A DNA stretch of 64,000 nucleotides from Eledone cirrhosa (Eukaryota): NCBI GenBank assembly GCA_964016885.1, contig OZ024747.1:47430001-47494000 (forward strand), read 5' to 3'. This document shows positions 7,387 to 53,645 of the stretch, one piece after another (the first letter of the stretch is position 1; every line of letters begins with the position of its first letter). The notes under the pieces were generated by a model, which was given only the letters and a program-made list of their open reading frames with translations, had not been told where the DNA came from and made no database searches. The position numbers and the translations under genes are program-made.

Positions 7387-7577
7387 GAACAAGTAGGACG
7401 CCGACGGCTGAGCTCAGGCCGTTTCGACGGCTAATTCTAGTCTAGAATTAGCCGTCCAAACGGCTTGAGCTCAGCCGTCGGCGTCCTACTTGTTCCTATT
7501 ACCCGCTCTACTACCCTAAGTATTGAGTAATTTGGTGCGTTATGGTCCATCTCGTTTCTTACCACATTTCCTTCGTT
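7387..7577 (+). mobile_element. Fold-back element family Q, copy (palindrome 7387-7495 plus ~80-bp tail) in (TA)n
   Basis: 54-bp arms centred on 7441. The tail ...TTACCACATTTCCTTCGTT is shared with other copies. Confidence 0.8.
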
Positions 7578-8173
7578 ATATATATATATTGTTTATATAT
7601 ATATATTGTATATATATATATTGTATATATATATATATATATATTGTATATATATATATTGTATATATATATATATATATTGTATATATATATATATATT
7701 GTATATATATATATATATATATATTGTATATATATATATATATATATATTGTATATATATATATATATATATATATATATATATATATATATATATATAT
7801 ATATATATATTGTATATATATATATATATTGTATATATATATATATATATATATATATATATATATATATATATATATATTGTATATATATATATATATT
7901 GTATATTGTATATATATATATATATATATATATATATATATATATATATATATATATATATATATATATATATATATTGTATATATATATATGTATATAT
8001 AGATATAGATAGGTAAATATACACGGGTGTGTATGATTGTGTATAGAAGATTATATTAATAAGAGGAATTCCAACTTTGTCTGATTTACTCGTTTTATTT
8101 ACAATCCTTTAAAATATATATAATGGTATTATAATGAAATAGTATGATAGAATATTAAATTCTAAGTGTTAAT

Positions 8174-8212
8174 TGAACAAGTACTTTCATGCTTTCGCAA
8201 TCTTCAGGTTCA
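8174..8212 (-). ncRNA. Minimal type I hammerhead ribozyme motif (P1)
   Basis: Identical to the 2278-2316 motif, reverse strand. Confidence 0.7.
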
Positions 8213-8300
8213 TGATATGTGGTGACAGTCGAGTTTGCAATTTTCAACTGTGAAAATTTTCACAGTTGAAAATTGCAAACTCGACTGTCACCACATATCA

Positions 8301-8339
8301 TGAACCTGAAGATTGCGAAAGCATGAAAGTACTTGTTCA
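8301..8339 (+). ncRNA. Minimal type I hammerhead ribozyme motif (P1)
   Basis: tgaac CTGAAGA ttgcgaaagcat GAAA gtac TT gttca. Confidence 0.72.
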
Positions 8340-8495
8340 ATTAACACTTAGAATTTAATATTCTATCATACTATTTCATTATAATACCATTATATATATT
8401 TTAAAGGATTGTAAATAAAACGAGTAAATCAGACAAAGTTGGAATTCCTCTTATTAATATGTATATATATATATATATTGTATATATATATATAT

Positions 8496-8686
8496 AGGAA
8501 AAAGTATGACCCCGACGGCAGGGCTCAAGCCGTTTCGATGGATATTTCTGTCCAGAAATAGCCGTCGAAACGGCTTGACTCTGCCGTCGGGGTCATACTT
8601 TTTCCTATTTCCCACTCTACAACCCTCAGTATTGAGTACTCTGGTGCGTTATGGTCCATCTGGTTCCTTACCACAATTCCTTTGTT
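8496..8686 (+). mobile_element. Fold-back element family Q copy
   Basis: AGGAAAAAGTATGACCCCGACGGC...GCCGTCGGGGTCATACTTTTTCCT plus the shared tail. Confidence 0.8.
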
Positions 8687-9125
8687 ATATATATATATAT
8701 ATATATATATATATATATATATATATATATATATATATATATACATATATATATATATATATATATATATATATATATATATATATATATATATATATAT
8801 ATATATTGTATATATATATATATATATATATATATATATATATATATATATATATATATATATATATATTGTATATATATATATATATATATATATATAT
8901 ATATATTGTATATATATATATTGTATATATATATGTATATATATATATTTATATATATATATATATATATATATATATATATATATATTGTATATATATA
9001 TGTATATATATAAATTGTATATATATATATATATATATATATATATATATATATATATATATACAATTTATATATATATATATACAATTTATATATATAT
9101 ATATACAATTTATATATATATATAT

Positions 9126-9172
9126 ATTCCTGATGATTTCTAAAGAATGAAACAGTTCTAGTCCTGTAGAAT
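9126..9172 (+). ncRNA. Stand-alone type I hammerhead ribozyme motif between (TA)n tracts
   Basis: attc CTGATGA t ttc-taaa-gaa t GAAA cag-ttctagtc-ctg TA gaat: all three stems pair, GUA cleavage triplet. Confidence 0.75.
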
Positions 9173-9477
9173 CTCATCTATATTAAAACTATATATATAC
9201 AATATATATAAATATATATATATATTGTATATATATATATATACAATATATATATATATATATACAATATATATATATATATACAATTATAAAATTATAC
9301 AATTTATATATATATATATATATATATATATATACAATATATATATATACAATTATACAATTATACAATTTATATATATATATATATATATATATATACA
9401 ATATATATATATATCGTATATATTTATATATATATACAATTCATATATATATATACAATATATATAAATATATATGC

Positions 9478-9826
9478 AAAAGTTTTATTTAAAATTGTTG
9501 GGTTACAACAAGCAAATATTTTATAACTGATATAAAGCACTCGACAAGTTTTTGGAGTAGATATACGATATTAAACAAATGGAAACTATATTTATAAAAC
9601 CATATTTATTTCATTATACATATTTCAGGGATACCATATTAAAAATAGCCAGCCTCCTACCTTAATGGTATATTTATAGTACGTCAAAATTATTTATAAA
9701 ACTGGTTATATATTGTATTTTATCTGACGAAGGCATGCCATATTTTTAATATGGTATCTCTGAAATATGTATAATGAAATAAATATGGTTTTATAAATAT
9801 AGTGTCCATTTGTTTAATATCGTATA
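9478..9826. mobile_element. Fold-back element family P2 (arms ~9562-9647 and ~9741-9826) in (TA)n
   Basis: ~86-bp inverted arms with a spacer; a hammerhead overlaps the right arm. Confidence 0.7.
9716..9781 (+). ncRNA. Type I hammerhead ribozyme motif (P2)
   Basis: tattttat CTGACGA aggcatgccatatt-ttt-aatatggtatctct GAAA tatgta TA atgaaata. Confidence 0.7.
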
Positions 9827-10076
9827 AATATATATATATATATATTGTATATATATACAATATATATATATATATATATATATAATATATATATATATAT
9901 ACAATTATACAATTTATATTTATATATATATATATATATATATATATATATATACAATATATATATATATTGTATATATTTATATATATATATATATACA
10001 ATTTATATATATATATATATATATATATATATATATATATATATATATATATATATATATATATATATATATATAT

Positions 10077-50991: not shown

Positions 50992-51215
50992 ATATCCAAT
51001 GCTTTTATCGAGAACGACACAGCTAGAGACTTATAGAATACTTAGCTGTGTACAGGAACTGGTTTGAAAGAGCGGTAGCCGGTCCGGCAGAAATTAGAAT
51101 TTGGATTTAATGCTCTGAAATAGCGATATATATGTGAAGACAAACATAGAATATTCGAAAATATTCTGTATGTTTATAATAAACATTTTGAAGACCTAAT
51201 AAAAGCATTGGATAT

Positions 51216-51258
51216 GTAATCCTGATGATTTCTAATAAGAATGAAACGCGTAGGTTAC
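51216..51258 (+). ncRNA. Minimal type I hammerhead ribozyme (P4)
   Basis: gtaatc CTGATGA t ttct-aata-agaa t GAAA cgcg TA ggttac; GUA site after 51252. Confidence 0.82.
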
Positions 51259-51526
51259 TTCCTTGCTTTTATCGAGAATCTCAAATTGTAATACGTGACG
51301 TATTCTATTCTATAGCGATTAGGTCTTCAAAATGTTTATTATAAACATACAGAATATTTTCGAATATTCTATGTTTGTCTTCACATATATATCGCTATTT
51401 CAGAGCATTAAATCCAAATTCTAATTTCTGCCGGACCGGCTACCGCTCTTTCAAACCAGTTCCTGTACACAGCTAAGTATTCTATAAGTCTCTAGCTGTG
51501 TCGTTCTCGATAAAAGCATTGGATAT

Positions 51527-51569
51527 GTAATCCTGATGATTTCTAATAAGAATGAAACGCGTAGGTTAC
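51527..51569 (+). ncRNA. Minimal type I hammerhead ribozyme (P4)
   Basis: Identical motif; GUA site after 51563. Confidence 0.82.
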
Positions 51570-51906
51570 TTCCCTTGCTTTTATCGAGAATCTCAAATTG
51601 TAATACGTGACGTATTCTATTCTATAGCGATTAGGTCTTCAAAATGTTTATTATAAACATACAGAATATTTTCGAATATTCTATGTTTGTCTTCACATAT
51701 ATATCGCTATTTCAGAGCATTAAATCCAAAATATATATATATATATATATTATATTTTCTCGCAAAACCACAAACTCTCCATCTCAACTCTACTTTTGAA
51801 AAGCACAAGAACTGCGAAACCGGTAAAGGAACCAAATAAATATATTAAAAAAAAAAAGACTCCAGTTGCATTTTCGATTTCATCTTCTTTCCTTATATAT
51901 ATATAT

Positions 51907-52337
51907 AGGAGAAGAGTCAGGACCCCGACGCCTGAGCTCCGACCGTTTCGATAGCTAGATCCGAAATAACCCAGCAGTCGTTCGTGTTAGATCGGATCTA
52001 GCTGTCGAAACGGCCGGAGCTCAGCCGTTGGGGTCCTGACTCTTTTCCTACTACCCACTCTACTACCCTAAGTGTCGAGTACTCTGGTACGTTATGGTCC
52101 GTCTGGTTCCTTACCACACTTCATTTGTGTTTTATATATATATATATATAGGAACAAGTAAGACCCCGACGGCTGAGCTCAACCCGGCTAATTCTGGACG
52201 TCCAGAATTAGCCGTCGAAACGGCTTGAGCTCAGCCGTCGGGGTCTTACTTGTTCCTATTACCCACTCTACTACCCTAAGTATTGAGTACTTTGGTGCGT
52301 TATGGTCCACCTGGTTCCTTACCACATTTCCTTCGTT
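51907..52337 (+). mobile_element. Two tandem family Q copies (51907-52130 divergent subfamily; 52150-52337) separated by (TA)n
   Basis: Each has a palindrome plus the shared tail. Confidence 0.8.
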
Positions 52338-52477
52338 ATATATATATATATATATATATATATAATACATATATAATATGCATATGTGTATATATACATA
52401 TATGTATATGTATATATATGTGTGTGTGTGTGTACGTGTACATATACATATATATATATATATATATACTACACACA

Positions 52478-53358
52478 CGAGGTGTGCCTGAAAGGTAACA
52501 GGACTTAGTATGCAGTGTGAGCTAAAAGTGAGATAGGGATTAGTATGTTGCGTCGCCGTATGACGCAATATCCGGTGAGTATATAACTGCGATCTCAGCT
52601 CTCTGCAGCCATTGTATGTTTTTTGGCCTGCTTTTGTTAACAGCTACTCAACTTTAGGCCGTCGAGCAATGTGCACAGAGCAACAAACCAGCCTGATGTT
52701 TCTGGGGAAAACTCCGTAAGAAGCACTCGTAATACTACAGCAAGTGTACGGAGATAAGACGATGTTGCGCTCACGGATTTTCGAGTGGCACAAAAGGTTT
52801 AAAGGGATGCGAGGCCGTGGAAGATGACCCTAGGAGCGGGAGGCCTTCAACGAACATAACTAAAGACAACGTTGAGCGCGTTAGGAAGGTGGTGCGTGGT
52901 GGTTGTCAGCTGACTGTTTGACTGATCGCAAGTGAGCTGGACATGAACCGCGACAGCTTTTGGAAGATTGTCACCAAAGATTTGGGCATCCGGAAGATCA
53001 CCGATTCACAACACCTTGAGCATCCGGCAGTTCCTGGCCGAGAAAAACATCGCCATACTGGAACAACCTCTTTATTCACCTGATCTTCCTTCGTGTGACT
53101 TCTTTTCCTCAAACTCAAGGCGGGGGTCATCAATAGGACACGTTTTGAAGGCGTGGAAGCCATCAATAGGGCCATAACGAAGGAACTGAGAGGCATCCTA
53201 GAAGAATCGTTCCAGCAGTGCATAGAAGCGTGACAGGGAAGGGTGGAAAAGTACATTAGGCTCGAAGAGGATAACTTAAAAGGGGAGACCATGTAGTTTG
53301 TTGTTTAGAATTGAAATAAATTGTGACACCAGTCCCGTTACTTTTCAGACAGACATCG
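52478..53358 (+). mobile_element. Decayed, internally deleted mariner transposon
   Basis: TIRs CGAGGTGTGCCTGAAAGGTAACAGGACT / AGTCCCGTTACTTTTCAGACAGACATCG followed by TA. Remnants QQVYGD..RIFEWHKRFK, EDDPRSGRPS, PLYSPDLPSCDFF. Confidence 0.85.
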
Positions 53359-53399
53359 TATATATATATATACGATGTCTGTCTGAAATATATATATAT

Positions 53400-53510
53400 A
53401 ACTGTTTCTACTTTAGTTACAAGGCCAGCAATTACCCAGTACATTACTGGTACTTTATTTTATCGACCCCGTAAGGATGAAAGGCAAAGTTAACCTCGGC
53501 GGGATTTGAA
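53400..53510 (-). mobile_element. tRNA-SINE fragment
   Basis: GGTACTTTATTTTATCGACCCCGTAAGGATGAAAGGCAAAG...GGGATTTGAA. Confidence 0.75.
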
Positions 53511-53511
53511 T

Positions 53512-53645
53512 AACGAAGTGTGGTAAGGAACCAGTTAGACCATAACTCACCAGAGTACTCGATACTTGAGGTAGTAGAGTGGGTAATATGAAAAAGTTCA
53601 GGGCCCCGACGGCTGAGCTCCGGCCGTTTCAACAGCTAGATCCGT
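53512..53645 (-). mobile_element. Family Q copy (divergent subfamily)
   Basis: AACGAAGTGTGGTAAGGAACC...CCCCGACGGCTGAGCTCCGGCCGTTTC. Confidence 0.75.

Follow-up and report, generated by a model that had tools for sequence, protein, structure and literature searches.

Why does an abundant hairpin repeat of Eledone cirrhosa keep only the substrate half of a hammerhead ribozyme? The question arises from a 64,000-nt stretch of contig OZ024747.1 (assembly GCA_964016885.1, forward-strand positions 47,430,001–47,494,000; hereafter the window), in which an earlier note, made from the DNA letters alone, had placed a repeat called family Q at nine sites and proposed that its complementary DNA (cDNA) snaps back at hammerhead stem II, deleting the catalytic strand. 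Following family Q through the window and the 3.0-Gb genome, we find that it is almost certainly a derivative of a Penelope-like element (PLE). On balance, and with some reservation, we favour a model of twin-primed run-off, in which two cDNAs would be started separately on the element RNA and would end at a capped start inside stem II.

Ends and arms of family Q copies

Family Q was present at all nine sites, set in (TA)n. The window contains 11 occurrences of its 29-nt core motif, against none in 20 shuffles, and a single 31-mer has 24,465 exact matches genome-wide (reversed control, 0). GAAA, stem III, the GUC triplet and the GGGGUC strand are all as originally described. Numbering the element RNA from the last base of the GUC triplet (position 0), we found two fixed insertion ends, +18/20 and +98, which are 80 nt apart and both followed by AT. 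The usual copy consists of two arms head-to-head: an S arm, with the short end at +18/20 and no tail, and an L arm, with the tailed end at +98. Exact tail ends continue into ATATA 21,280 times genome-wide and into sequence on the side of an open reading frame (ORF) 300 times. Approximately 90% of arms are stubs, and the long copies have inverted arms of about 90–3,470 nt. An assembly artefact was rejected, as DNA run X2 (possibly the source sample) gave the same depth step and end positions as the assembly.

The two arms agree at four diagnostic columns in 39–40 of 41 insertions (13.8–33.0 expected), and rare variants were common to both arms once and confined to one arm 49 times, indicating one template type for both arms and no amplification of a fixed hairpin. 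The substitutions common to both arms, previously regarded as copy-specific, are subfamily markers; the proposal that the palindrome is made afresh at every insertion is supported, and the fold-back apex does vary from copy to copy. A miniature inverted-repeat transposable element (MITE) or Helitron with a fixed hairpin was rejected, given this variable apex and ends that are two internal sites of a reverse transcriptase (RT) element.

Which arm reaches further upstream was determined for 95 distinct tail-anchored insertions mapped in the first 27 Mb of contig C1, of which 61 have an adjacent S arm and 34 are solo, interrupted or unresolved. In 12 of the 61 (one of them, L216, possibly an alignment overrun), the S arm outreaches the L arm in the upstream direction by more than 10 nt, whereas the reverse holds for 5 and the two end within 10 nt of each other in 44; L-arm ends also form a weak cluster at +21 to +27 (5/95). 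The 20 long loci scored (of 21; L104 was skipped and L061 counted as L) each have one S end and one L end (the L111 tail has an internal deletion); the S end sits on the longer arm in 9 and the L end in 11. Contigs of run X2 likewise contain an opposite-strand joint, −39 to +54. An S arm cannot give a tail and a short L arm cannot give a longer S arm, so in such copies neither arm was copied from the other; because each arm can hold sequence that the other lacks, snap-back is not the general cause. Asymmetry in both directions makes twin priming very probable. The asymmetry fits the start sites on both strands described for Poseidon PAc of Anolis (Frangieh et al. 2024, PMC11167929), whose protein, a predicted dimer, cuts and extends both target strands from two internal RT start sites bounding the tail and inserts without a need for hammerhead cleavage, much as would be the case here. 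The tail itself has been attributed to nuclease resolution (PMC8557442).

A Penelope-like master element and its hammerhead

Beyond +98, the master element of family Q runs on into an ORF (300 exact matches). Three tandem arrays have units of 3,531–3,544 nt (~3.54 kb) that are 99.8–100% identical within and 98.5–98.7% between arrays, and two of the three have open frames of 784–786 codons (715 amino acids from Met). The 715-amino-acid protein carries YRDD; of 7,998 candidates scored, 818 are relatives at E ≤ 1e-20. Pfam and PDB sequence-profile searches with it gave no match; the best PDB fold match of its AlphaFold model (predicted local distance difference test, 87.9) is telomerase RT (TERT, 3du5; E = 1.2e-08). 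The master thus combines a telomerase-related RT in a single ORF with a Penelope-like architecture of partial tandems, an inverted 5′ copy and a tail on one of its ends. Young full-length arrays, with as many as 4–5 units in tandem, occur at L183–L188 and L263–L271; array-specific variants are common to all units and the inverted arm, and both S-body and L-body polarity are found.

Endonuclease-bearing (C-terminal EN+) PLEs of the Hydra clade (Craig et al. 2021, PMC8557442; Hydra-1_Obim, Penelope-13_HM) resemble the master in having a single ORF with RT followed by a GIY-YIG-type nuclease (putative in the master), RW(K/R), DKT, CxCX5C, CxxC and CxH motifs, a (TA)n target, a hammerhead near the end and a 5′-truncated inverted copy with the tail at one end. 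The nuclease pattern IY..YIG..R..H..E..N is kept in up to 29 of 30 aligned sequences and fits the Hydra EN alignment by eye; RWR (K in 26/30), DKT (29–30/30) and CNCX5C, CNLC and CKH (29/30) agree with the clade's motifs; the Hydra proteins in the supplement of PMC8557442 match the master motif by motif, again by eye. The master differs in its unit (3.54 kb versus <3 kb, a length that the paper presents as general, not absolute), its tail (80 nt versus 30–40) and its core (U3-A8 with a stem II of ~55 nt, versus canonical CUGAAGA and a short stem II in Hydra-1_Obim). The master and Hydra-1_Obim are different families. As judged from its sequence, the master represents a new family of the Hydra clade whose hammerhead is a variant one; its tail and inverted-copy architecture were already known. 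A first assignment to Naiad was rejected given the C-terminal position of the putative nuclease and the Hydra-type motifs, and a selenoprotein was rejected given that the in-frame TGA of L107 sits at an Arg position of intact copies. In the same supplement, the Hydra entry that precedes Hydra-1_Obim contains CTTCGTTAT a short way past its hammerhead; this 9-mer is also that of the L priming site here and is possibly a clade-wide start motif.

The catalytic strand that family Q lacks is present in the longer copies, in which ACCCC-UUGANAA-G lies some 55 nt 5′ of GAAA (exact matches: 559 in one lineage and 122 in a second, a few of the 122 being junction artefacts). A master with a catalytic strand therefore exists, as had been anticipated, with the core UUGANAA and not the expected GACCCC-CUGANGA; a genome search for CUGANGA gave 33 matches with unrelated upstream sequence that resemble chance junctions. 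Among 46 cores selected without using the core sequence, 24 were TTGAGAAG, 10 CTGAGAAG, 9 TTGATAAG and 3 other, with CUGANGA in none. The three stems around core positions 3–9, GAAA, the NUH triplet and the 3–8 pair of a type I hammerhead are all found, stem II being ~55 nt and stem III 5–6 bp long, and the unconstrained minimum-free-energy folds of L186 and L253 are type I three-way junctions. Across 47 aligned hammerhead rows, 91.2% of cells pair, three stem II pairs differ on both sides between lineages and the 3–8 pair is present in 38; as the rows were chosen by a core-containing pattern and represent two related lineages, this covariation gives modest support.

Several results weigh on the other side: C3 stands with A8 in 12 of the 46 cores, L109 and L067 favour an inactive fold with an alternative hairpin, fold z-scores against shuffles are only −0.3 to −2.0 and uninformative, and an Rfam scan of the master region found no hammerhead at E ≤ 10. 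There was also none among the 150 of 202 Rfam matches listed for the window, nearly all of which are microsatellite-driven microRNA matches and all of which are below gathering. The evidence supports the Q motif as the substrate half of a real hammerhead, as the earlier note had it, with self-cleavage predicted from sequence. The U3-A8 pair is a known natural covariant that is active in vitro (PMC3088659) and is shared with the Schistosoma Cercyon PLE (PMC4209133); opposite-strand hammerhead pairs have already been described with U3-A8 PLE hammerheads (PMC4209133). Unlike those known, the master hammerhead has a monomer-type stem III, a very long stem II that holds the putative start discussed below, and one subfamily with C3-A8. 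This successful subfamily (L067, L129, L169, L172 and L175) has a mismatch at the tertiary core pair, which suggests that it was amplified with a weakened ribozyme.

The stop zone in stem II and its explanations

Among 219 arms that reach GAAA, 24 stop at −22 to −32, 167 at −33 to −46 and 6 at −47 to −89, and 22 run on; the apex thus lies in the would-be stem II usually, although not always as was first thought. The stop rate per base is 0.129 at −33 to −46 versus 0.0056 at −47 to −89. Solo arms and arms with very short partners end in the same zone, and where the L arm of a two-armed copy ends downstream of −23 (12 copies), the S arm still stops at −37 to −44 in 7. Given that solo and short-partner arms also stop near −40, the stop belongs to the template and not to the fold-back.

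The base before A(−40) is G in 2,684 arms versus A in 527, and a purine at −41 is not common in any subfamily aligned. By hand count, the first 100 matches at −40 include 39 G versus 4 A that are explained by neither arm, whereas at −37, a control start with 797 matches, the first 100 gave 26 G and 74 A; at seven junctions, G is found on both arms. TTAGT at −42 to −38, which we take to resemble an initiator, is common to two lineages that otherwise diverge through distal stem II; an MTE-like match was also noted. Extra G from copying the cap has been reported for L1 and avian myeloblastosis virus (AMV) RT (PMC4038843), and Penelope of D. virilis likewise starts within its upstream pseudo-long terminal repeat (pLTR; PMC2377424). 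These junctions make it probable that a capped transcription start lies at A(−40), perhaps also at A(−44), inside stem II. With such a start, the catalytic strand would never be on the 5′ end of the RNA, and Q copies would lack it.

This assignment must be set against a number of observations. Of 89 G in the first 100 matches, 38 are possibly the last base of the partner arm and 12 are ambiguous; restricted to mapped loci, the excess is 8 G versus 3 A; and untemplated C addition by RT without a cap is a possible source of the G. The stops are spread across 14 nt, many arms read 1–4 nt beyond −40, and window copy 51907 reaches −51. A TATA-like box lies 29 nt upstream in one lineage and is absent in the other, and RNA run X1 (share 0.05) gave a single contig, in the 3′ untranslated region, that was not taken as expression.

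In a predicted RNA starting at −39, GAAA is locked in an alternative hairpin. In L186:4289-4427, base pairs can form around CGAA between the 3′ side of stem II and the 5′ side of stem III; such pairing is predicted to act as an off-switch when the RNA starts near −40.

A second class of ends lies at the predicted cleavage site: 173 arms start at +1 behind A, versus 17 at a control position, −2, and L176 starts at +1 on both passes. Of the first 100 such matches, about one quarter are junctions with both arms ending at +1. The pile-up fits cleaved RNA as a minor template, a reading tempered by the 18 point mutants in the first 100 matches and by the fact that a pause before stem III could likewise stop RT at +1. 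In seven loci (L154, L158, L178, L180, L181, L125 and L155) among 304 arms, ~−40 is joined directly to +183 to +2824, which we read as template jumps; none of the 304 arms has a duplication of −40 to 0, which weakens the case for a jump to the cleaved 3′ end. Among the first 100 whole-hammerhead matches, 38 are in 19 inverted pairs (hand count), versus 22 of 219 arms that pass −40 at all, and 15 of 30 ORF-bearing copies pass −40 again (4 of the 15 from one array). Passage beyond −40 is thus correlated, and long copies therefore likely derive from a different template class, circular or read-through; a circle, read-through and homology-guided transfer would each fit. A circular-RNA template for tandems has been proposed (PMC4209133).

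Snap-back of a single cDNA at stem II with self-copying, which is near an earlier proposal of self-priming (PMC3846280), would explain the near-symmetric arms of 44 of the 61 two-armed copies, the subfamily variants common to both arms and the joining of copy 49017 in a natural palindrome. It cannot build those copies (12 of the 61 short ones, 9 of the 20 long ones and window copy 40363) whose arms cannot be copies of each other; solo arms end at the same place, and junctions with G on both arms and 0–1 nt between them fit two run-off ends. We therefore exclude snap-back as the general route and regard it as improbable overall. A closer competitor, although still unlikely, retains twin priming but makes −40 a roadblock, formed by RNA structure or a bound protein in stem II, on a longer RNA, with G as ordinary untemplated addition. 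The 14-nt spread of stops and a stem II that is structured in some subfamilies would suit it, but the stops fall beyond the basal helix, where stem II is weakly paired, G is in excess at −40 specifically and A at −37, TTAGT is conserved though mostly unpaired in the L253 fold, and template jumps depart from −40.

Long perfect palindromes are unstable, and the long copies here retain spacers, so the short palindromes might be long inverted insertions with centres later deleted in the genome. Such deletion would give solo arms no reason to end at −40 and does not account for the untemplated G, the +1 class or the forward jumps from −40; we give it very little credence. Equally hard to sustain is a half hammerhead kept as a functional substrate for cleavage in trans, with Q as a self-propagating non-autonomous family. 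Q copies keep both priming sites and possibly an initiator, so transcription would be possible; however, the Q haplotypes inspected also occur in long copies, the varying apices mean that no fixed hairpin was amplified, and the −39-start RNA is predicted to hide GAAA in its hairpin. The cleavage in trans that the earlier note offered as an alternative to snap-back thus finds no support.

In twin-primed run-off, both ends of a cut (TA)n target would prime separately on the element RNA, at two internal sites, and both cDNAs would run off a capped 5′ end lying inside hammerhead stem II, where A(−40), and perhaps A(−44), would be the RNA polymerase II start and the extra G the copied cap. The 5′ end of the transcript would hold the substrate half only, and the whole ribozyme would be at the 3′ end or in read-through RNA, where cleavage would yield RNAs starting at +1. 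The two cDNAs would be united by end joining, often through microhomology, and long copies and arrays would arise either on circular or read-through templates that lack the −40 end or by a jump into a 40-nt terminal redundancy. More tentatively, and with slightly less than even confidence, the 5′ ribozyme copy may be disarmed while the 3′ copy cuts, the 40 nt from start to cut serving as a retrovirus-like terminal redundancy; a dimeric RT may prime both ends of the target close to the 5′ end of the RNA, with unjumped ‘strong-stop’ cDNAs giving family Q and jumps or ribozyme-made circles giving pseudo-LTRs, inverted repeats and arrays.

Window copies, neighbouring repeats and known systems

The window copies listed as hairpins are mostly that, the exceptions being 53512 (a single arm), 11403 (with a partner remnant) and 40363 (two ends, of 25 nt and 10 nt, joined). 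Copy 7387 has an inverted S arm at 7387–7444 (minus strand; element ~+18 to −41) that overlaps by a few nucleotides its L arm at 7438–7577 (plus; ~−41 to +98), with (TA)n flanks. Copy 8496 pairs an S arm at 8496–8550 (minus; to −36) with an L arm at 8549–8686 (plus; ~−40 to +98). An L arm at 11406–11551 (plus) starts from ~−40 (11413) with a short partner-arm remnant in front. At 49017–49134 (minus), an L arm running from +98 to ~−19 meets an S arm at 49129–49176 (plus; from ~−29) within the element’s own 16-nt palindrome around CGAA, making this copy the window’s best candidate for true snap-back or microhomology annealing. A more diverged subfamily is represented by the S arm at 51907–51978 (minus), which reaches ~−51, 11 nt beyond the proposed start, and, after an unassigned 8-nt spacer, the L arm at 51987–52127 (plus; from ~−42). 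The S arm at 52150–52199 (minus; to −39) has an internal 8-nt deletion, and its partner at 52200–52337 (plus; −39 to +98) contains GAAA, stem III, GUC, the 3′ strand of stem I, the S site and the 80-nt tail. A solo L arm without a partner is located at 53512–53649 (minus; from ~−41). The minimal insertion at 40363–40397 joins an L end of 25 nt (minus) to an S end of 10 nt (plus) with no sequence common to the arms, and 50494–50511 (plus) is an internal fragment, ~−24 to −7.

Other hammerhead-like repeats surround these copies. A second family (2058–2424 and 8053–8460) consists of near-perfect palindromes with arms of 183 and 204 nt and a whole CUGAAGA hammerhead-like motif on both arms; its architecture is Q-like with the apex ~40–55 nt upstream of the core, outside stem II, providing a natural control for the model. 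A third (50814–51730) is an inverted and tandem repeat with 387-nt arms and three CUGAUGA...GAAAC motifs, and a related motif is found at 9130. Further hammerhead-like motifs lie at 23170–23330, in a TA-flanked palindrome, and at 61219 (minus strand). Two other long inverted repeats with spacers (56976–57921 and 6679–7160; arms of 225 and 205 nt) showed no hammerhead core. Long, partly tandem ORFs at 13503–20480 (plus), 27372–39530 (minus) and 42409–46032 (minus) look like RT and endonuclease proteins of non-LTR retrotransposons.

Among known systems, twin priming of L1, in which the second target end primes on the same RNA, and retroviral strong-stop DNA, with run-off at a capped 5′ end and terminal redundancy, both resemble the proposed route. 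In L1, inverted and forward parts correspond to neighbouring RNA segments that do not overlap, whereas the Q arms both start near the 5′ end and overlap; the retroviral reaction differs in its transfer RNA primer, which the Q model lacks. Neither an integrase nor an RNase H motif was noticed in the ORF, although no search was aimed at either. The Poseidon PAc start sites are not homologous to the cut DNA, whereas both ends here have TAT microhomology to (TA)n, and no Poseidon reads ended at the cleavage site, whereas genomic copies here pile up at +1; the available portion of PMC11167929 contains no derivation of inverted arms from twin priming. Non-LTR retrozymes (bioRxiv 10.64898/2026.07.22.740005) are non-autonomous derivatives of PLE pLTRs. 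L189 (G000:C2:356028500-356036000) is an array of this kind, with approximately seven 299-bp units of the Q master element in which the ORF is deleted, stem II is shortened and the core UUGAGAA is retained. As dispersed, inverted stubs, Q copies carry no whole ribozyme; their identity as retrozymes was rejected, as they lack both the core and tandem units each with a whole hammerhead. Our literature search, whose scope excluded most subscription journals and older PLE reviews, found no paper that derives PLE inverted arms from twin priming or places a start inside a hammerhead.

Neither the element class nor the tail nor the U3-A8 core is new; what is new is the mechanism that the junctions suggest. 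Family Q supplies tens of thousands of natural reaction products together with intact young ORFs. Its junctions exclude snap-back as a general route and indicate an exact candidate start site, and its +1 arms may be a genomic trace of ribozyme cleavage. Twin-primed run-off would explain the puzzling inverted ends throughout this class of elements, and the more tentative scheme with a terminal redundancy, if true, would by itself account for tail, inverted copy, tandem and ribozyme across PLEs.

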